Source of the DNA: an uncultured Ignavibacteria bacterium
GTDB lineage: Bacteria > Zixibacteria > MSB-5A5 > UM-FILTER-46-8
Assembly (NCBI GenBank): GCA_964563085.1
Contig: CAZLVS010000011.1
Location: 8,328 to 72,327, forward strand
Reading direction: 5' to 3'
Length of the DNA stretch: 64,000 nucleotides
Numbering within the stretch: position 1 is the stretch's first letter; the number at the start of each line of letters is the position of its first letter. Below the pieces are notes generated by a model. It did no database searches. It was not told where the DNA came from and worked only from the letters and a program-made list of their open reading frames with translations. Positions 15,043-57,135 of this stretch are shown here, one piece after another. Made by a program: the position numbers and the translations under genes.

Positions 15043-15289
15043 TCTACGATAAACTCTTATTATAGTTTTTGTAATGCAAAAGTCAAGTTAAATATGGATT
15101 GAAAATTATTTCGCAATACTGTGATTTGCATCTACATTTTTAAGTTATTTCCAATCATATTCGTAATCCGGCATATTGTTGTCATTAAAGAGATGATTTC
15201 TACCTTTGATAATATCACGGCGAGGAGGCGTGTTAAACCGAATCCTACGCAAATCTTTGGCGTAAGTCGGATTCTCCCGATAAATCGGG

Positions 15290-15410
15290 GAGCGAGAAAC
15301 CCGACATAGTGGTATTTTATGCGGCGTCAAACGTCCACTCCATAGGCCTGTGGACTCGTTTGAAGCCTTCGGACAGACGAGAACGTCTGACCGCGCCCAA
15401 GACCGCTGTC
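15290..15410 (+). repeat. Copy A of an approximately 100-150 nt tandem-hairpin intergenic element (core hairpins 15323..15393)
   Basis: It shares 'gagcgaGaaac..gacatagYggtatttt.tgcggcgtcaaacg...cgtttgaHgcc-ttcgg-acagac...gtctgaccgc' with the copies at 17885 and 57000. Hairpin 1 is ggcgtcaaacg/cgtttgaagcc with an inserted tccac/gtgga sub-stem. Hairpin 2 is cggacagac/gtctgaccg. Confidence 0.5.
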
Positions 15411-15658
15411 CTCCGTTTAATCGGGGACGGCAAGCGGATTGCTCCGCCGTTCAGCGCTCCAGCGCTGACGTAAGAAAATATATGGTTGGCGAACGTCCCC
15501 GCCAAAGGCGGGCAAGCTCGTTCATCAGCTTAAATCATAAACAAGGCATACGGGGACGTATGCCTTGCAAGATATTGTCACGACATGCATATCCCCGCTC
15601 TTAGCGGGACTAAACATGCCACTTTTACTTCTAACAACTAAAAACTAATAGCTAACAA

Positions 15659-17713: not shown

Positions 17714-17884
17714 GTTTCCTCCGTTTTAGTTGCTATTTTAAAGACTACTATAACCCCATCCCTATAAGTTAAGATACAAAATTAACAATTTTCAAGCTTC
17801 ATCTAATTTCCCTAAGAAGGTATCTATTTACTATATAATACATAATCTCTCACATGCAAGTATAAAACGAAGCCGCTTAAAGTT

Positions 17885-17995
17885 GTTCTCGTGGCGTCAA
17901 ACGTCCTCGTTTGACGCCTTCGGTAAGACGAGTTTACGCGCTTCTGGCGCGGTAGTCTGACCGCACCTGAGAAGGATGCGTTAGTCCAGAGGGTT
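17885..17995 (+). repeat. Copy B of the tandem-hairpin intergenic element (core 17893..17963)
   Basis: Perfect 11-bp hairpin ggcgtcaaacg-tcct-cgtttgacgcc, then ttcgg, then the second hairpin cggtaagac...gtctgaccg with an inserted cgcgc/gcgcg sub-hairpin. Downstream 'gatgcgttagtcca..g.gttgacc' also matches copy C. Confidence 0.5.
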
Positions 17996-18231
17996 GACCG
18001 CCGGAGCATACAGCAGCTTAATTAGTTAAAAACCATAACTTGTCTTTGTAAAAATTCAGTCGACGATATTTGTAGAACCTGGCGGATTAAGCAACTCGAA
18101 TTATTCCGCAAATTTTCGGAACAAAAGGAACGATAATAAAATTTGTATTTGTTTTGAATCAAATAACGAGTTATCTAATCATACAAACAAATGGGGAAAT
18201 CTAATAACTGAGTTTCGAAAGGAGAATTATA

Positions 18232-18543
18232 GTGATTAATATATCGGATAAAGCAAGTAAAGAAATTCAGAAAGTTTTGCAGAGCGATAGAGCTAAAGGC
18301 AAACATCTTATTATCTTCGCTAACGGATTCGGATGAGGCGGACCCAGTATGGGAATGGCTCTGGATGAGTCCAAAGAAGGTATGAAGGAATTAGAGTCGA
18401 ATGGTATAACCGCATACATCGATCCTGTTCTGTATGAGCAGGTTAAGCCGGCTGGCGATATCAGGATTGAATATGTTGACGATCCTTTGCGGGGGAAAGG
18501 ATTTCAGATAAATATCGGCAACAGCGGCGGATGCAGCTGCTAA
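18232..18543 (+). CDS. HesB/IscA-like Fe-S assembly-type protein with an in-frame TGA (18334..18336) at the conserved first Cys; candidate selenoprotein
   Basis: GTG start with a GGAG RBS 7 nt upstream. The translation 'VINISDKASKEIQKVLQSDRAKGKHLIIFANGFG-U-GGPSMGMALDE...FQINIGNSGGCSC' aligns to the IscA/HesB pattern (..GLRLGV..GGCSG......NPNA..CGCG), with TGA exactly where the first conserved Cys lies. The ORF track only reports the post-TGA half (18349..18543). Confidence 0.6.
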
Positions 18544-19050
18544 TTTACTGCAAAGGGGGGCTTCTGCCATATTTACGGCAATATCGTAATCCATATTAAT
18601 ACTACAAATGGGGATTAAACCTCTTGACAACCGCATTTACTTATCTATTTTTACGCTCGGTCTTGAGGAGTAAAGGCGTCGGGTGAGGGTGAAACTGTCT
18701 CAAAACCTCAAAAAGATTACTTCGTCGTCCCGCATTTCGCCCCGATGAAATCCCGCATTCTGCGGGACGCAGTCGGGGCAATGACAGCAGTAGGAGTCAT
18801 TGCGAGCCCGAAGCTTGCTGAGGGCGCGGCAATCTCCTATTCTCACGCAATGCGTTAAATTAGGGATTTGAGATAGCTTCGAGGGCACCCGACGGCACGA
18901 TTCAATGGAGGGACGCGCTTCGTCGCGTCCATTGGTTACTTTTTTAAACGAAGGATTTATTCCCGTCTTGTATTCTATTCACAGAATAAAGAGAAAATCT
19001 CCAATCCCGAACTTATAGATATAATAACAAAAATAGAATGTACAGGAAAA

Positions 19051-19434
19051 GTGATTGATAAAAAGGCAGCTTTCTGGTTTGTAGTTGCACTATCATACGC
19101 AGGATTTATAACGTATATTTCATCGCAACCTCAACTGCCAACTCAGGATTTAGGCATTGATATAGGTGACAAAGCGATGCATGCAGGAGCGTATTTTGTT
19201 TTTGGATTGTTATGGTATAAAGCGTTTGCAGGAATCAGACTGAACATGCGAATTCCGGTTTTGCGGGTGGTGTTCGTATACGGATTTATTTTCGCTGCAA
19301 TCGATGAATTTCATCAGTATTTTGTACCTAACCGTGAAATGGAATTTTGGGATTTTGCCGCCGATGGTCTGGGGATAATTATGGCGATAATTATGGTGAA
19401 ATTATGGAATCTACGATTGCGAAAAGCTCATTGA
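19051..19434 (+). CDS. VanZ-like family membrane protein
   Basis: Four TM segments and 'FAAIDEFHQYFVPNREMEFWDFAADGLG', the VanZ-like motif. Confidence 0.65.
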   Translation: MIDKKAAFWFVVALSYAGFITYISSQPQLPTQDLGIDIGDKAMHAGAYFVFGLLWYKAFAGIRLNMRIPVLRVVFVYGFIFAAIDEFHQYFVPNREMEFWDFAADGLGIIMAIIMVKLWNLRLRKAH

Positions 19435-19478: not shown

Positions 19479-20780
19479 TTGAAAATTATGGAATCGATTA
19501 AAAGGATAAAAGGAACCGACGATATACTTCCACCGGAAATATACCTCTGGCAGTTCATGGAAACGAAAATCCGGGAAATCATGCAAAGGTATAACTATCA
19601 GGAGATGCGCATCCCGATTTTTGAGCATACCGAGCTTTTTGCCAGGAGTATAGGTGAGGCGACCGATATTGTATCCAAGGAGATGTACACTTTTAACGAT
19701 CTGGGCGGAAGGAGCTTAACCCTCAGACCGGAGGGAACAGCAGGTGTGGTGAGGGCGTACATAGAGCATTCTTTGGGCGCTAAAGAACCTGTGGTTAAAT
19801 GTTACTATATATGCCCTATTTTCCGGCAGGAAAAGCCCCAGAAGGGTCGAAGGCGTCAGTTCAATCAGTTCGGAATCGAAGTTCTCGGTACCGATTCGGC
19901 ATACGCCGATGTGGAGGGGATACTTTTAAATCTTGGGATTTTGAAGGGTCTGGGTATCGATGATTGTCAGCTCAGGATTAACTCAATCGGCGATCCGGAT
20001 TGTAGAGTTAGGTATCGAGTTGCATTGAAGGAATACTTAAAGCCGCGGTTGGATGAACTATGCGAGGATTGCCGAATTCGTTTCGAGAAAAATCCTCTGA
20101 GAATTCTGGATTGTAAAAGGGAAAGCTGTCAGGCTGAACTTAAAGAAGCTCCTGTGGTTTTGGATCATCTTGGCGAGGAAAGCAAAGAGCATTTTGAGCA
20201 AGTGCGCAGCGGTCTGGACAAACTTAATACTGACTATTCGATTGATAAAAGATTAGTAAGGGGTTTGGATTATTATACCCGCACTGTTTTTGAAATAATA
20301 TCACAATCCCTGGGCGCACAGGATTCATTGTCCGGCGGCGGACGGTATGATCTCCTTGTAGAGCAATTAGGCGGTAAGCCGACACCCGCATTCGGTTTTG
20401 CGGCTGGAATGGAACGTCTGATATTGGTGATGCAGGAATCCGAAAGATTAGAAATGCCGGTTCGGAGTATAGACTGTTTTATTGCTGCTCCTAAGGGAGA
20501 AAATCTGGATGAAGCGTTGATTTTAGCCGAAAAGGTAAGAGACAGAAACCTGAGCGCGGAAATCGATCTTCTAAGCAGGTCTTTAAAGGCGGAATTGAAA
20601 ACGGCAAACAAACTTAATGCGAATTTCGTGGTGATTTTGGGTGATAATGAACTAAAACGTGGGGTAGGCTCGGTAAGGGATATGAAGTCCTCGGAGCAAT
20701 GGGAGGAACCTCTGGATAAACTACCGACACGATTGGCTGAATTAGTATCAACACGGCGAGGAAAACGTGAAGGATTTTAA
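19479..20780 (+). CDS. hisS: Histidine--tRNA ligase
   Basis: 'GTDDILPPE', 'RSLTLRPEGTAGVVRAY', 'GGGRYD' class-II aaRS/HisRS motifs. Confidence 0.92.
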   Translation: MKIMESIKRIKGTDDILPPEIYLWQFMETKIREIMQRYNYQEMRIPIFEHTELFARSIGEATDIVSKEMYTFNDLGGRSLTLRPEGTAGVVRAYIEHSLGAKEPVVKCYYICPIFRQEKPQKGRRRQFNQFGIEVLGTDSAYADVEGILLNLGILKGLGIDDCQLRINSIGDPDCRVRYRVALKEYLKPRLDELCEDCRIRFEKNPLRILDCKRESCQAELKEAPVVLDHLGEESKEHFEQVRSGLDKLNTDYSIDKRLVRGLDYYTRTVFEIISQSLGAQDSLSGGGRYDLLVEQLGGKPTPAFGFAAGMERLILVMQESERLEMPVRSIDCFIAAPKGENLDEALILAEKVRDRNLSAEIDLLSRSLKAELKTANKLNANFVVILGDNELKRGVGSVRDMKSSEQWEEPLDKLPTRLAELVSTRRGKREGF

Positions 20781-46567: not shown

Positions 46568-47479
46568 TCAAATAGCAACTTCTATACAGCGGTAGGAAAG
46601 TTCATTGAGGGGTAGTTCGCCCAGCAGAAGAACCGTATCGCCGCCTCCGGCGCCGGTAGGTTTAGCATAACCGCCGTTGTCCAATGCCCATCGCTTGAGC
46701 TCATCATGCACGGGGATACGATAGCTTATCCCTGCACTTGAACAGCATTTCGTAACTAAAGACGTGAACTCATCCAGGATGTCATAAAGGTCGGGCGGAG
46801 GTATCCTAAACCATTTCTCAGCCAATTCATCGCTTTTGTCAATCAGGCTTTTAAGACTTTTATTTTTCCTCCCGGTGTTTTTTATCCATTGGTTGAATTT
46901 CGTAACGAACTCACGGGTATCCGCTGACTTCCCGGTCCAAACCAGATTAATCGGTATCTTATAATCCGGATTGGGAGTATGCAATTGGTCCATGAAGAAA
47001 CCGTCCCGGTTACGCTTGAATACAATCGGTTTACCATAGGCGCAGACCGCGACATCGGCCCCGCTCCCCCGACCGCCTTGGGCGATTGTATGTGCATCGA
47101 TGGCGTATATCGCTGCCGAATACCTGTTCATCTCCCACGGTAAACCGGCGCGCTCAAATCGGAGTGCAATAACGCCGGCTGCTTCAGCGGCGGAGGAACC
47201 GATCCCCAGCTTAACCGCAGCGCCGCTGCCATCGCGAAAGTAAAAATCCGATCTGTCAATATCAACGCCCTGCAGGGGATGAGTGTGCTCGTAACCATCC
47301 AGTTCGGGAACAGGATATTGTATGGCGTTTTTCACAACCGGATTGGTGTTCTCCGCAGTTGGCGCATTCGATTCAGTGATTTTAAGGAAGCGAGGGACGG
47401 GGAAGAGAACAGCGCTTCCACCATAGAGAACAGCGTATTCCCCCGACAACATTACTTTTCCTGGCATGGTTACAGTCAT
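46568..47479 (-). CDS. GHMP-family kinase, most likely phosphomevalonate kinase (short form) of the mevalonate operon
   Basis: 'GKVMLSGEYAVLYGG', 'KLGIGSSAAEAAGV', 'GAGGGDTVLLLG'. Operon context with mvaD/HMGR-MVK/idi-2. Confidence 0.65.
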   Translation of the reverse strand: MTVTMPGKVMLSGEYAVLYGGSAVLFPVPRFLKITESNAPTAENTNPVVKNAIQYPVPELDGYEHTHPLQGVDIDRSDFYFRDGSGAAVKLGIGSSAAEAAGVIALRFERAGLPWEMNRYSAAIYAIDAHTIAQGGRGSGADVAVCAYGKPIVFKRNRDGFFMDQLHTPNPDYKIPINLVWTGKSADTREFVTKFNQWIKNTGRKNKSLKSLIDKSDELAEKWFRIPPPDLYDILDEFTSLVTKCCSSAGISYRIPVHDELKRWALDNGGYAKPTGAGGGDTVLLLGELPLNELSYRCIEVAI

Positions 47480-48456
47480 TTTTCTATTGAAATTATCTCG
47501 GCGCCTCCAGCCGGTTTACAGGAAATAAAGTGTGATTCACCGAGGTGATGCAGTATATTCTTAGTAATCTTTTCAGAATCACTCTGCCTGCATAAGACAA
47601 TAACGTTAGAACCGGCATCAACCGTGAAGTAGGCTTGTATACCGCTCTTTTCGCGAATGGAGCGAATTCCCCTAATAATTCTAAAGGTTGAATCATTCCA
47701 GTACAAAAGCGGTGGGCGTGATGCCATCATACAGCAATGCATGGCAAGCGCGTTTTCTTCCATTATACTGCCGATTGCTGCGAAATCATCCACTTCGATT
47801 GCAGACAGCATTTTCCGGTAATCCTCTCGGGCTTGCTTCACCCAACTGGAGTAATAGGGCGAAGTCTCCGCGCAGCGACGCATACCGAGCGATGAGGGCG
47901 TATCCTTTTGCTCGGAATGAGCGAGTAATACTATCATGCTCCATGGAACATCTTGCGGCTCTTTCAGTAATCTTGCGGACGGATCATCGTTGAGTGGAAA
48001 GGCTGATAATCCCCCGGTAATAGAACGCGCTGCCGAACCGCTTCCCTGGCGCGCTAATTTAGATAATTCCCTGTCGGAAAGCTTTCTTTCTGAGAATCCG
48101 CTCAAAGCTTTTGCTAATGCCGCGAATCCCGACGCGCTCGATGCCAGACCGGAAGATGTTGGGAAGCTGTTTTTCGATTCCAACAAAAAACTGCCCGCGA
48201 TTAGCCCTTTGTCCCGCCAGAGATCAAGATATTTCACGAGACGATGGTTTACTTCACCGGAAGTTTCCGCACCATTAAGGATGAATATATCGTTAGATTC
48301 TTCGGTTCGCGTTATGGTTGTTTCGGTAGTAAGTTTATCCAGAGCGAGCGAAATAGAGGGAGTGGCGGGAATATTCCCCGCTGTATCTTCCCGTTTTCCC
48401 CAATATTTTATCAAAGCGATATTCGAATATGCCCGGGCGATCACCCGCCGTATCAC
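47476..48456 (-). CDS. mvaD: Diphosphomevalonate decarboxylase
   Basis: 'AYSNIALIKYWGKRED', 'SSGLASSASGFAALA'. Confidence 0.85.
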   Translation of the reverse strand: MIRRVIARAYSNIALIKYWGKREDTAGNIPATPSISLALDKLTTETTITRTEESNDIFILNGAETSGEVNHRLVKYLDLWRDKGLIAGSFLLESKNSFPTSSGLASSASGFAALAKALSGFSERKLSDRELSKLARQGSGSAARSITGGLSAFPLNDDPSARLLKEPQDVPWSMIVLLAHSEQKDTPSSLGMRRCAETSPYYSSWVKQAREDYRKMLSAIEVDDFAAIGSIMEENALAMHCCMMASRPPLLYWNDSTFRIIRGIRSIREKSGIQAYFTVDAGSNVIVLCRQSDSEKITKNILHHLGESHFISCKPAGGAEIISIEK

Positions 48457-50759
48457 CGCAGCGCTCCCAACGTAAATGGAAACACCATCGGGAAATCATG
48501 GGATAGAGATTCCATCCAATCGAACTGGCTCCCGGGTTCGACCAAACCGATGACCGCGCCGCCGCCTCCGCTGCCGGTTAGTTTAGCGCCAATTGCGCCG
48601 TTTTCCAGCAAAAGCTCCACAGCCCTATCCAGCGCCGGAGTAGATACGCCCAGTTTTGCCAGAAGCTCATGATTCCGGAACATCAGTTTTCCGATTTCGT
48701 AGGTGTCACCGGTTCCCAATGCTATTCCGGCATCGACAGTCAGATTCCCGATATCTTCCAGGATACTGTTAACGTACTCCGGTTTTTGGTCGCGGAACCT
48801 CGCCACTTTCTTAACCAGCTCTATCGTTCTGGCGCCCGGTTCCACCAGGCATATTACGCCGCTTACCGGAGAGGGAACCTGGATCGGTAAGAACTCCCGC
48901 GGAGGTCCTTTACGGAACCAGAGCACCCCCTCAGAGAGAACGGTAGCCGCATCCATCCCGCTGGGATGGCCATGGAAAATCGCCTCCAGGTTCTGAACTT
49001 CATCAAAGAAATCGCTGTCCCATCTTTTTGACCGCCTCAGATGCTTATATTGCCGTAAAGCTGAGCACAGAGCGATTGAAAATGCTGCCGACGAACCTAA
49101 ACCCATGCCGGGAACCAGTTCGGATTCGATCTGGATGGCGATAGGTTCATTTCTTAGATCATATATTTCTAAGGCTACATCCACCGCATTTGAAAACAAT
49201 TGGATATCCTGGTCCGATTTGGGAACGGAAAACACCTTTTTAAAATGTGGATGAAGAAACCGGGGACCGTCAGGGTCCCTGGTAACTTTTAGCTTAATGC
49301 CGATATTGATGGCAGCGGCAATCCCGGGATAGTTGTAAACGGTAGCGTGTTCGCCAAACAGTACGATTTTACCGGGTGCGAATGTTTCTACTGGCAATTC
49401 ATCCTCTTCCTCTGTTCGTTTGGGCTGCTTCTGCAGCTTACGATATATATCCTCCGCAACCGTAATTTTAACCTCGCCCCGCCTTATCATCTCCTGCGCG
49501 ACTTCTTCCACGGCATTAGGAGGTACGCCAACGCTAACCGCAACACTGCGAGCATGCAGCGCCATGTGCCCCTTCTGAATGCCAACTGTGCTTAACGCCA
49601 ACAGGGCGGCGAAATTCTGCCCCAAGCCTACTGCGCTCAGCAATCCGGCTAATTGGCTGGCGTTTTCCACGCCGCTTATTGCGCGTAGAATTTGCACTCC
49701 GGGATGAGCTTTGACCGCGCCGCCCACGCTGCCGGTTTGCAGCGGCAGTTCGATTTCACCATGCAGACATCCGTTGGAAATCTTGTAGGTGGTAAGACCT
49801 CGGTAGATTCCATCTCGAGCGGCATATGCATGCCCGCCGGCTTCGATTGCTCGCCAGTCCTGACCCAATGCCAGGGCAGCGGCGCACAGTCCGTTAAATA
49901 TACCTTTGTTATGTGTCGCAGCCCGATAGGGATCCACATGCGCCAACCTATCAGCCTCAACCAAACGATGCGCCACCTCCTCGCCGGTGAATTCCTTCGT
50001 GGTTAGGTGTTCGAACGGCAATGTGAATTCGGCCCGAGCGATTCGCTTATCAGCGAGATTGGAAAGGATGCGAAGGTGCACACGGCCTCCGGTCACCATT
50101 TCAATCAGTGAGCCGACCGCTTCGCATGCGTAGTTGACCGCATTTGCTCCCATCGCCTCACAGACGTTAAAAAGCAGATGAACCACCAGCATCTCGCCGA
50201 CGCCTTCCCCACCATCCAAAATCCTGGTCTCGATATCAAAAACGCCGCCGCCTCTCTGCACCATTCGGGGATTTACCAGGTTCGCTTGAGCTATAATTTC
50301 ATCTTTATAATTCCCAATCTGTCTGACAGCTTCCTGCGGGTCTTTCAGGTCGAGTACCTGCACCTGCCCGATCATCACCGGATCGTTGATTCGGGTACGA
50401 AATCCTCCGCCCTTGCGAATTATCAGCGCCGCTTTTGATGCTGCGGCTATTATTGATGCTTCCTCGATCGCCATGGGAACCAGATACTCCCTGCCATCGA
50501 CCAGAAAATTCAATCCCAATCCGAGGGGTAAGCCGAAGACTCCCACGGCATTCTCCACCATGTTAACTGCATGCTTCATTCTCAGAGCGTTACCATTGCG
50601 GAGTTGCGAAACTTGTTCATCGTTTAGATTAAAACTCCGCGCCAGAAATGCGAGCCGTTGTTCAACCGACAATCGGTAAAATCCCGGTATCCGCGAAGTT
50701 CTGAATTCGGTTCCTCCGATAGGAGGTTTCTTAATGAATCGAAATCTATCCATTATCAA
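48453..50759 (-). CDS. Fusion protein: class II HMG-CoA reductase (N-terminal, about 430 aa) plus mevalonate kinase (C-terminal, about 330 aa)
   Basis: HMGR-II motifs 'ENAVGVFGLPLG', 'EAMGANAVN', 'GSVGG'. After the linker 'KRTEEEDELPVE' come MVK motifs 'APGKIVLFGEHATVYNYPGIAAAI', 'GMGLGSSAAF', 'KLTGSGGGGAVIGL'. There is no internal stop or start. Confidence 0.8.
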   Translation of the reverse strand: MIMDRFRFIKKPPIGGTEFRTSRIPGFYRLSVEQRLAFLARSFNLNDEQVSQLRNGNALRMKHAVNMVENAVGVFGLPLGLGLNFLVDGREYLVPMAIEEASIIAAASKAALIIRKGGGFRTRINDPVMIGQVQVLDLKDPQEAVRQIGNYKDEIIAQANLVNPRMVQRGGGVFDIETRILDGGEGVGEMLVVHLLFNVCEAMGANAVNYACEAVGSLIEMVTGGRVHLRILSNLADKRIARAEFTLPFEHLTTKEFTGEEVAHRLVEADRLAHVDPYRAATHNKGIFNGLCAAALALGQDWRAIEAGGHAYAARDGIYRGLTTYKISNGCLHGEIELPLQTGSVGGAVKAHPGVQILRAISGVENASQLAGLLSAVGLGQNFAALLALSTVGIQKGHMALHARSVAVSVGVPPNAVEEVAQEMIRRGEVKITVAEDIYRKLQKQPKRTEEEDELPVETFAPGKIVLFGEHATVYNYPGIAAAINIGIKLKVTRDPDGPRFLHPHFKKVFSVPKSDQDIQLFSNAVDVALEIYDLRNEPIAIQIESELVPGMGLGSSAAFSIALCSALRQYKHLRRSKRWDSDFFDEVQNLEAIFHGHPSGMDAATVLSEGVLWFRKGPPREFLPIQVPSPVSGVICLVEPGARTIELVKKVARFRDQKPEYVNSILEDIGNLTVDAGIALGTGDTYEIGKLMFRNHELLAKLGVSTPALDRAVELLLENGAIGAKLTGSGGGGAVIGLVEPGSQFDWMESLSHDFPMVFPFTLGALR

Positions 50760-51841
50760 ATTCCTTGTTTATCGAGCCATCCAAAGTTCAAAAGCCATTC
50801 TCTCAATTCACCGGTGAATATCCTGGGAATCCTCTTTAGTTCGGTTAAGTCGGCGGCGCCGGTCAAAAGCATAGCTGTCTTCAGCTCATGTATCATTTGC
50901 TCCATAAATTCGGCAGCTCCGTCTTTGCCATTATCAAGAAAACTAAGTAATATAGGGCGGGCAAATCCGGCGATATCCGCTCCCACAGCGATCGCTCGCG
51001 CAGCATCCAGGCCGTTTTCAATTCCGCCTGATGCCATTATGCAAGCCTTCTCATTTCGGATCCTGCGCGCCGCAATAAGACTGAATGCGGTCGGTATCCC
51101 CCAATCGGAGAATGTTTTGCCAGTTTGTTTGAGGAGTTTATCCGCCGCCCGATACATCTCCACTTTGGTCCAAGAAGTCCCCCCGGCTCCGGATACATCC
51201 AGATATTTAATCCCGATTTTCGATAGTTTCTTCAAACTCTCAGGGTCTATCCCGGCTCCCGTCTCTTTAACCATGACTTTGCCGTCTATCTTATCATTCA
51301 ATGCAGCCAAAGCATCGAGTAAACCGCGAAAATCCCGATGACCCTCATCCTGAATTAGTTCCTGTGCCGCATTCAGATGGACGCAGATTCCATCAGCTTC
51401 GATATCATCCATCAGACCAACTACGGCATCCAGGGGATACTCCCGTAACTCTCCAGCGCCGATATTACCCAGCAGGACGCCATCCGGTATCCATTTACGA
51501 ACCGCGAAATCATCTTTCATCTCCGGGTGGCGAAATATCACTCGCTGACTGCCCACACCGAATGCGATTCCGAACTCCGATGCGGTTTCTGCCAGGCCGC
51601 GATTCATCTCCCCGGCGAATTCGGCGCCTCCGGTCATGCCGGTAATCATCAGCGGATATTTCAGTTTTTTCCCGAAGAATTCAACTTCGGTCCGGATATC
51701 CCTTAAATCCAACTCCGGAAGGGCGCAATGCAGCAGGATTATATCACCCAGCATGGTGTTCCGACGGTGTTTCACTTCTTCCTCGGCAACAATCCGTAAA
51801 TGCTCCGATTTCCGCCTGGATATGGTCACATCATTTTCCAT
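50756..51841 (-). CDS. fni: Isopentenyl-diphosphate delta-isomerase, type 2 (FMN-dependent)
   Basis: TIM-barrel IDI-2 pattern 'PLMITGMTGG', 'FGVGSQR', 'VKETGAGI', 'LDVSGAGGTSW'. Confidence 0.85.
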   Translation of the reverse strand: MENDVTISRRKSEHLRIVAEEEVKHRRNTMLGDIILLHCALPELDLRDIRTEVEFFGKKLKYPLMITGMTGGAEFAGEMNRGLAETASEFGIAFGVGSQRVIFRHPEMKDDFAVRKWIPDGVLLGNIGAGELREYPLDAVVGLMDDIEADGICVHLNAAQELIQDEGHRDFRGLLDALAALNDKIDGKVMVKETGAGIDPESLKKLSKIGIKYLDVSGAGGTSWTKVEMYRAADKLLKQTGKTFSDWGIPTAFSLIAARRIRNEKACIMASGGIENGLDAARAIAVGADIAGFARPILLSFLDNGKDGAAEFMEQMIHELKTAMLLTGAADLTELKRIPRIFTGELREWLLNFGWLDKQGI

Positions 51842-56999: not shown

Positions 57000-57135
57000 C
57001 GAGCGAAAAACTGACATAGCGGTATTTTTGTGCGGCGTCAAACGTCTTCGTTTAACGCCTTCGGTCAGACAAGGAAGTCTGACCGCACGCAAATGAGATG
57101 CATCAATCCATGAGTCAACCGTCAGGGCGCATGAT
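57000..57135 (+). repeat. Copy C of the tandem-hairpin intergenic element (core 57034..57085). It is followed at 57195..57234 by hairpin aaggctg/cagcctt plus T6 on the + strand.
   Basis: 'gagcgaaaaactgacatagcggtatttttgtgcggcgtcaaacg-tctt-cgtttaacgcc-ttcgg-tcagac-aaggaa-gtctgaccgcac'. The second hairpin is a perfect 9 bp. Confidence 0.5.

Follow-up and report, generated by a model that had tools for sequence, protein, structure and literature searches.

Is the TGA that interrupts a short reading frame in the DNA of an uncultured Ignavibacteria bacterium (Zixibacteria in the GTDB lineage) a stop codon, or is it decoded as selenocysteine (Sec, U)? The frame lies in a stretch of 64,000 nucleotides of contig CAZLVS010000011.1 (assembly GCA_964563085.1), which was analysed as a whole and is called the window hereafter, and its product resembles HesB and IscA, proteins of the A-type carriers of iron-sulphur (Fe-S) clusters. 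From the comparison of homologous sequences, we consider with a probability of about 0.9 that 18232-18543 is a functional gene encoding a 103-residue HesB/IscA-like selenoprotein with the A-type Fe-S carrier fold. This reading is carried by the conservation of the UGA in four bacterial lineages, by purifying selection on both of its sides, by its replacement with a cysteine codon in some homologs, and by a hairpin conserved at the RNA level 21-35 nt downstream.

The HesB-like selenoprotein family was reportedly described by Kryukov and Gladyshev in 2004. It is an established prokaryotic family, represented by 11 selenoproteins in a 2006 census, mostly from Deltaproteobacteria and Clostridia (PMC1794560), and characterised by the motif UxGP and the model TIGR01911 (PMC13188914, Table 1). 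A HesB-like selenoprotein of Methanococcus maripaludis has been confirmed by mutagenesis and 75Se labelling, its function being described as "not clear" (PMC11097638). No report of selenoproteins in Zixibacteria or Ignavibacteria was found in the literature searched, an absence that is limited to that literature. Taking into account that the UxGP family already appears in published selenoprotein tables, the finding is not new in kind, and the first-pass annotation of the locus, made from the sequence alone, was right to call it plausible rather than new.

The UGA codon, its homologs and the ligand pattern

That annotation had proposed a frame of 103 codons, with a GTG start and an upstream ribosome-binding site, broken only by the TGA, and all of its coordinates hold (Table 1). 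Read through the TGA, the frame is translated as MINISDKASKEIQKVLQSDRAKGKHLIIFANGFG-U-GGPSMGMALDES...NIGNSGGCSC. As had also been pointed out, the gene is missing from the program-made list of open reading frames (ORFs) of the window, in which only the downstream piece of 64 residues (18349-18543) is present. A relative in GenBank retrieved by protein search, GF315_14320, is likewise annotated as a 64-residue "hypothetical protein". The closest relative identified in the genome-collection scan is locus L001 (WJIR01000314.1), from a metagenome-assembled genome (MAG) of Zixiibacteriota, whose ORF is 94% identical in protein and 90% identical in nucleotide sequence and starts with ATG at the position matching the GTG of the window.

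The genome scan yielded 28 loci, 26 of them with full-length homologs; L028 was spurious, and in L026 the first third of the gene, TGA column included, is masked with N. Among the full-length homologs, the matching column holds TGA in 25 of 26 loci, the remaining one, L010, having a Cys codon (TGT). Three more Sec forms were found in L029, L030 and L031, giving, with that of the window, 29 Sec-form genes (alignment A4) from Zixibacteria, Ignavibacteria, one Fibrobacteraceae MAG and MAGs of the Syntrophaceae/Desulfatiglandaceae type. The codon of the orthologs, which the first-pass annotation had proposed as a check, is therefore TGA in 29 genes and Cys (TGT or TGC) in L010 and in the genes of proteins P0002 and P0003, and it is never TAA or TAG. 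Sequence is conserved on both sides of the TGA across the homologs, and the recurrence of the codon in one column exceeds by far what chance would produce. Further full-length proteins of the Cys form exist (P0004, P0006 and others, in addition to P0002 and P0003).

Protein databases hold the same family in a fragmented state. When the Cys homolog P0002 was used as query in an exhaustive HMMER search, about 25 cluster representatives, 56-74 residues long and starting just past the Sec column, were retrieved, together with one N-terminal piece of 34 residues that ends exactly at this column, because gene callers stop at the UGA. Other public proteins (P0005, P0007, P0008, P0011, P0018, P0024 and P0028) have Trp at this position. 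The Trp codon of P0005 is a TGA, at 232-234 of L031, and the Trp forms are therefore genetic-code-4 gene calls made on ordinary bacteria. Public records thus mis-annotate this gene as a hypothetical protein of 64 residues, as a split gene or, in other pipelines, with the UGA rendered as Trp.

On two short contigs, both forms of the gene stand in tandem. In L029, a Cys form (162-497) is followed by a Sec (TGA) paralog at 679-918, and in L030 a Cys form (259-603) is followed by one at 686-1018, so that the Cys copies, which are P0002 and P0003, have a Sec copy 80-180 nt downstream. These tandems may be selenium-dependent isoform pairs.

Selection was evaluated between the window and L001, whose ORFs differ at 31 nucleotides, 23 of them at third codon positions. 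The ratio of nonsynonymous to synonymous substitution (dN/dS, Nei-Gojobori) is 0.055 for codons 2-34, 0.025 for codons 36-103 and 0.037 overall. Such low values on both sides of the TGA imply that both halves are translated in frame and have been under purifying selection in this lineage, and a pseudogene is therefore ruled out.

The assignment to the HesB/IscA family, proposed from the sequence alone, is supported by profile searches. The best NCBIfam matches of the window protein are NF038090 (IscA_HesB_Se), which scores highest and aligns from end to end (residues 1-103 to model positions 1-101), and TIGR01911 (HesB_rel_seleno), followed by the generic IscA/ErpA models. Homology is found with E = 1e-10 to 1e-14, though under all curated cut-offs. 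Compared with structures in the PDB, the family profile matches 1NWB (3e-14), 2APN (7e-13), 1S98 and 1R94, both of E. coli IscA (about 1e-6), and 1X0G (4e-3). The TGA had been placed at the first invariant Cys of the family, and U35 does align to the conserved "GCSG" cysteine of IscA-like structures such as 1NWB and 2APN. The C-terminal Cys-x-Cys, said to be retained, is indeed so, since the invariant columns of an alignment of 25 sequences are U/C35, G37, P38, G41, L44, G90, C101 and C103; Met42 is nearly invariant. The protein thus has the domain of the A-type carriers IscA, SufA and ErpA (PF01521) and their three-ligand pattern, 35 ... 101-x-103, which we take to correspond to the ligands Cys35, Cys99 and Cys101 of E. 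coli IscA. It differs from these carriers in that its first ligand is Sec and not Cys, followed by GP where they usually have SG(F/M).

Some variation was observed in the C-terminal Cys motif (columns 101-125 of alignment A2). The window protein and L001 have only the CxC (GGCSC), most relatives have a third Cys 3-5 residues upstream, and in several of them a CxxC (GCEGC, GCDGC) replaces the CxC. In known IscA structures, the C-terminal tail that binds the cluster is disordered.

Regarding its place among selenoproteins, the window protein shares with the HesB-like family a length of about 100 residues, IscA/HesB homology, U at the first conserved Cys position, the UxGP motif (UGGP in the window, with G37 and P38 invariant) and the existence of Cys-containing homologs, by which an in-frame UGA is paired with Cys. 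Its clade departs from the model TIGR01911 in score and in its hosts, which are Zixibacteria, Ignavibacteria and Fibrobacteraceae. The Syntrophaceae-type homologs L021, L022, L023 and L027 score 110-134 bits against NF038090 and pass its cut-off, whereas all tested members from Zixibacteria, Ignavibacteria and Fibrobacteraceae remain at 51-63 bits, which places the window gene in a clade that is sister to the curated subfamily. Both groups have the TGA column in common and a nearly identical sequence in the RNA element described below; they differ in that the clade of the window has a 3-residue insertion and an N-terminal strand KxLIIF instead of IRIxL. As the UxGP motif and the Sec/Cys pairing are present and the curated cut-offs are failed, the gene has been filed as what, judged by its sequence, is a divergent member of the known HesB-like selenoprotein family. 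With both curated models below threshold, this clade is missed by automatic annotation, to which the whole of its selenoproteins is invisible. The advance is one of annotation and not of concept, since a known family gains a clade and phyla that the curated models had missed; our knowledge of the Sec decoding mechanism is unchanged, and the function of HesB-like selenoproteins is not revealed by it.

The hairpin downstream of the UGA

In bacteria, Sec insertion depends on a stem-loop within the coding sequence, the selenocysteine insertion sequence (SECIS). The first-pass annotation had pointed to a weak candidate, ggctc-tggat-gagtc, about 21 nt past the TGA, and this is precisely the hairpin that is conserved among the homologs. 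Its arms are GGCUC (18357-18361) and GAGUC (18367-18371), it begins 21 nt after the TGA, and on the comparative evidence it is the predicted SECIS of the gene. RNAalifold recovers two hairpins across the homologs, a proximal and a distal one, the latter being the SECIS core. The five core pairs are formed in 29/29 Sec forms. Pair 31:43 is GU in 18 of them, GC in 6 and AU in 5, and pair 33:41 changes from U:A to C:G in L015, L029 and L030, a switch that corresponds to a synonymous Ala change (GCU to GCC) coupled to a Glu-to-Gly replacement. In the two-hairpin structure as a whole, 94.5% of the cells are paired, versus 21-52% in controls in which the partners were slid by 1-3 columns, and its covariation score was reached by 0 of 500 shuffles.

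The strongest signal of the putative SECIS is the freezing of synonymous sites at codons 43-47. Where the residue is conserved, Leu44 is encoded by CTG in 27/27 sequences, Glu46 by GAG in 26/26, Ala43 by GCT in 20/21 and Ser47 by TCA in 19/21, compared with five to six codons in use at other conserved Leu columns and a split of 12 to 9 at Glu52. Between the window and L001, codons 38-49 have accumulated no substitutions at all, dS being about 0.5-0.7 elsewhere. The element overlaps the coding sequence of a conserved peptide motif, MALDES, and a matched negative control is provided by the adjacent Cys paralogs. The hairpin is lost in the Cys copies of L029 and L030 (GGCTCTCGACGGCAA and GGCGCTGGATTCCAG), and it is kept in the Sec paralogs, which follow them on either contig after about 80-180 nt. 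In L010, where Sec was converted to Cys very recently, it survives as a fossil, as in the HesB-like gene of Desulfitobacterium hafniense, for which a fossil SECIS after Sec-to-Cys conversion has been described (PMC1794560, Fig. 4).

The proximal hairpin, located between the UGA and the core, has 89.7% of its cells paired. Its closing pair involves two Gly wobble positions that covary (GC in 10 sequences, UA in 9, CG in 1, unpaired in 8), and in the window these positions are A/A, so that the pair is not formed. We regard it as a probable accessory element, which may be a spacer structure or form the lower part of the SECIS.

As a reference for the bacterial SECIS consensus, the model of Zhang and Gladyshev was used as summarised in PMC13188914 (Fig. 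2A), which gives an apical loop of 3-9 nt with a G in its first two positions, usually followed by G or U, an upper stem of 4-16 bp, a spacing of 16-37 nt and a minimum free energy (MFE) of -7.5 kcal/mol or lower. The window element has a loop of 5 nt, a stem of 5 bp (6 bp in most homologs) and a spacing of 25 nt (18337-18361); position 2 of the loop is G in 29/29 Sec forms, and position 3 is G in 26 and U in 3. In energy, the two hairpins taken together, from the UGA to 18371, reach -9.1 kcal/mol, the MFE of the 48 nt being -13.4, and it is only with the proximal hairpin included that the value demanded by the model is attained. The element therefore resembles the bacterial SECIS of the E. 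coli fdhF type, an in-coding stem-loop just past the UGA with a small apical loop and G at position 2, and differs from the typical model in its very short stem (5-6 bp) and in the second small hairpin between the UGA and the core. The window hairpin is also without the bulged U found in the fdhF SECIS.

Points against a selenoprotein, rival explanations and proposed mechanism

A number of results weigh against a selenoprotein gene at 18232-18543 and have to be set beside the evidence above. In the protein, the scores of the window gene are low: 23 bits against Pfam PF01521 (gathering score 26.3), 54.3 bits against NF038090 (cut-off 85) and 42 bits against TIGR01911 (cut-off 66.35). In the RNA, folding of the single sequence 18334-18400 gives z = -0.27, no better than shuffles and with a partly different pairing, and the hairpin is therefore identified by comparative analysis only. 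The core hairpin alone is weak (-4.9 kcal/mol), the MFE fold of the window sequence prefers a slightly different pairing, and most of the covariation cells stem from few related sequences. Neither a scan of the whole window at the Rfam gathering threshold nor permissive scans of 18300-18440 and 17714-19060 gave a SECIS or a credible RNA family. Regarding the Sec machinery, selA, selB, selD and tRNA-Sec were not found within the 64 kb of the window, and the Sec-decoding trait of the organism is deduced from the evolutionary signature of the gene itself. All-against-all clustering of ORFs across the loci revealed no conserved synteny, and the neighbourhood gives no functional hint. Finally, the whole reading is built on the comparison of sequences.

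The machinery was searched for with ARAGORN on the window and 27 loci, with Pfam on about 49 ORFs of the window, and with regular expressions that targeted motifs of SelD, SelA and SelB in the window as well as in every locus. No sel genes were found in the DNA flanking the related loci either, and the only tRNA of the window is Ser-GGA. When ORFs joined across a TGA were looked for in the window and the loci, no credible further selenoprotein gene emerged. If correctly recognised, the gene implies that these uncultured lineages probably use selenium.

That no Sec machinery is seen in the window would suit a dead gene, in which a nonsense mutation, or an error in base calling, has turned a TGC or TGT Cys codon into TGA, a single base change being enough for it. 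The identical ORF, TGA included, was nevertheless obtained in three read sets that had been assembled independently of each other (SRR7048218, SRR7048219 and SRR7048228), and a sequencing or assembly error, which the first-pass annotation had allowed for, is therefore excluded. The same annotation had considered that homologs might show a real stop, as expected of a pseudogene, and this is contradicted by the matching TGA in 29 genes from four lineages and by the dN/dS values upstream and downstream of it; nor is the frame disrupted anywhere else. On these comparative data a dead gene seems effectively refuted, and we assign it hardly any weight. It is also very improbable, in our view, that the locus consists of two genes, with translation stopping at the TGA to leave a peptide of 34 residues and a second protein starting at the ATG at 18349 or 18355, as in the annotated 64-residue ORF. 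The near invariance of Met42 would agree with such a start, and so would the piece of 64-65 residues called by gene callers in many assemblies. That piece, however, would comprise only half of the domain, the ATG at 18349 is not preceded by a Shine-Dalgarno motif, and contiguous Cys homologs put their Cys exactly at the TGA column, that of the first ligand Cys of the fold. Moreover, TGA ends 30% of the genes in the window, which makes 29 TGA codons out of 29 unexpected for an ordinary stop, and the RNA-level conservation past the TGA is tied to the Sec forms and lost in the Cys forms. Selection on both halves likewise argues against the 64-residue ORF being the only functional part.

Read-through could also take place with an amino acid other than Sec, through decoding by a near-cognate tRNA-Trp or tRNA-Cys stimulated by the hairpin, or with UGA as a sense codon in this lineage. 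The lack of an observed Sec machinery in the window and the Trp given at this codon by some pipelines could be adduced in its support, but the latter is a matter of code-4 calls of TGA, as verified on L031. In addition, TGA terminates 13 of the 44 Pfam-supported genes of the window, and UGA is therefore not reassigned in this genome. Trp could not take over the role of metal or redox ligand that Cys has in the homologs, the hairpin fits the SelB-type bacterial SECIS model in the G of its small apical loop and in its spacing of 25 nt, and the HesB-like family is a verified selenoprotein family elsewhere. We therefore regard read-through of this kind as improbable.

For the gene as a Sec-decoding selenoprotein gene, a mechanism can be proposed by analogy with the established bacterial Sec pathway. 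SelB, loaded with Sec-tRNA(Sec), would bind the apical stem-loop GGCUC-UGGAU-GAGUC in the mRNA, selenocysteine would be brought to the A site of the ribosome, where the UGA is positioned, and the ribosome would then proceed to the TAA at 18541. By homology, Sec35 would stand where the IscA/SufA/ErpA-type carriers have the first of their three ligand cysteines, and it might form, with Cys101 and Cys103, a transient iron or Fe-S binding site, or else a selenol/thiol redox site. The low pKa of the selenolate could make ligand exchange or redox turnover faster than with a thiolate.

A more far-reaching proposal, which we consider tentative and rather unlikely to hold in full, is that of a distinct clade of Sec-containing A-type carriers in lineages of the Fibrobacteres-Chlorobi-Bacteroidetes (FCB) type, sampled here in Zixibacteria, Ignavibacteria and Fibrobacteraceae, in which the selenolate would directly ligate iron or an Fe-S cluster and some tandem Cys/Sec pairs would allow a selenium-dependent switching of isoforms. 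Such switching in bacteria, analogous to that known for methanogen selenoproteins, would be part of this proposal.

Gene surroundings and further observations

The features of the locus are collected in Table 1.

Table 1. Coordinates of the predicted gene, its elements and the tRNA-His genes of related loci (window positions unless a locus is named).
Feature	Position	Strand	Remarks
Probable HesB/IscA-like selenoprotein gene	18232..18543	+	103 codons plus stop; GTG start 18232-18234; TAA stop 18541-18543
Shine-Dalgarno-like AGGAG	18220..18224	+	7 nt 5' of GTG; read from sequence; kept in nearest relative L001
UGA codon 35, probably read as selenocysteine; U of UGGP motif	18334..18336	+	sole in-frame interruption
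C-terminal Cys-Ser-Cys, codons 101-103; other two ligand cysteines of A-type carriers	18532..18540	+	family alignment
Predicted SECIS core hairpin: 5-bp stem GGCUC/GAGUC, 5-nt apical loop UGGAU	18357..18371	+	RNAalifold and covariation; loop starts 25 nt past UGA
Proximal small hairpin CCCA-GUA-UGGG, between UGA and predicted SECIS core	18343..18353	+	RNAalifold consensus
tRNA-His	L005 5503-5578; L014 5468-5543; L015 1532-1606; L017 5488-5563

The predicted selenoprotein gene stands alone, between a divergently transcribed gene for a secreted C1 peptidase and a VanZ-hisS-aspS cluster, and no isc, suf or nif operon context was found around it. Promoter and terminator scans of the + strand gave nothing upstream or downstream of the gene, and no sigma-70 consensus was found upstream of it on that strand. 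A block of 30 nt, ATAAAATTTGTATTTGTTTTGAATCAAAT, was observed at 18135-18164, about 70-100 nt 5' of the start codon; it matches perfectly between the window and L001, the surrounding intergenic DNA being about 88% identical, and it may be a promoter or an operator. Directly 3' of the gene, 18544-19050 is one of two intergenic stretches of 500-600 nt without a convincing ORF, the other being 15043-15658. Neither has an Rfam match at the gathering threshold, and no recognisable intrinsic terminator was found in 18544-19050.

In four Zixibacteria loci (Table 1), the HesB-like gene is followed, at a distance of about 140-200 nt, by a tRNA-His gene, and in the window a gene for histidyl-tRNA synthetase (19479-20780) is found two genes downstream of the selenoprotein gene. 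This proximity may be a coincidence or the remnant of a shared local gene order.

An intergenic element of about 100 nt is present in three copies in the window (17893-17988, 57034-57110 and 15342-15440), flanking genes for secreted proteins with a Por_Secre_tail sorting domain. Two long hairpins are conserved in it, GGCGUCAAACG...CGUUUGACGCC and CGGUCAGAC...GUCUGACCG, and inserts of variable length are placed precisely at their tips. It has no match in Rfam, and both strands fold equally well; it looks like a structured RNA or a repeat similar to repetitive extragenic palindromes (REP) or miniature inverted-repeat transposable elements (MITE).

Elsewhere in the window, a mevalonate-pathway cluster occupies 47476-51841 on the - strand, with a diphosphomevalonate decarboxylase-like gene, a fusion of HMG-CoA reductase and GHMP kinase of 768 residues, and a gene of the FMN-dependent dehydrogenase family that possibly encodes a type 2 isopentenyl diphosphate (IPP) isomerase.

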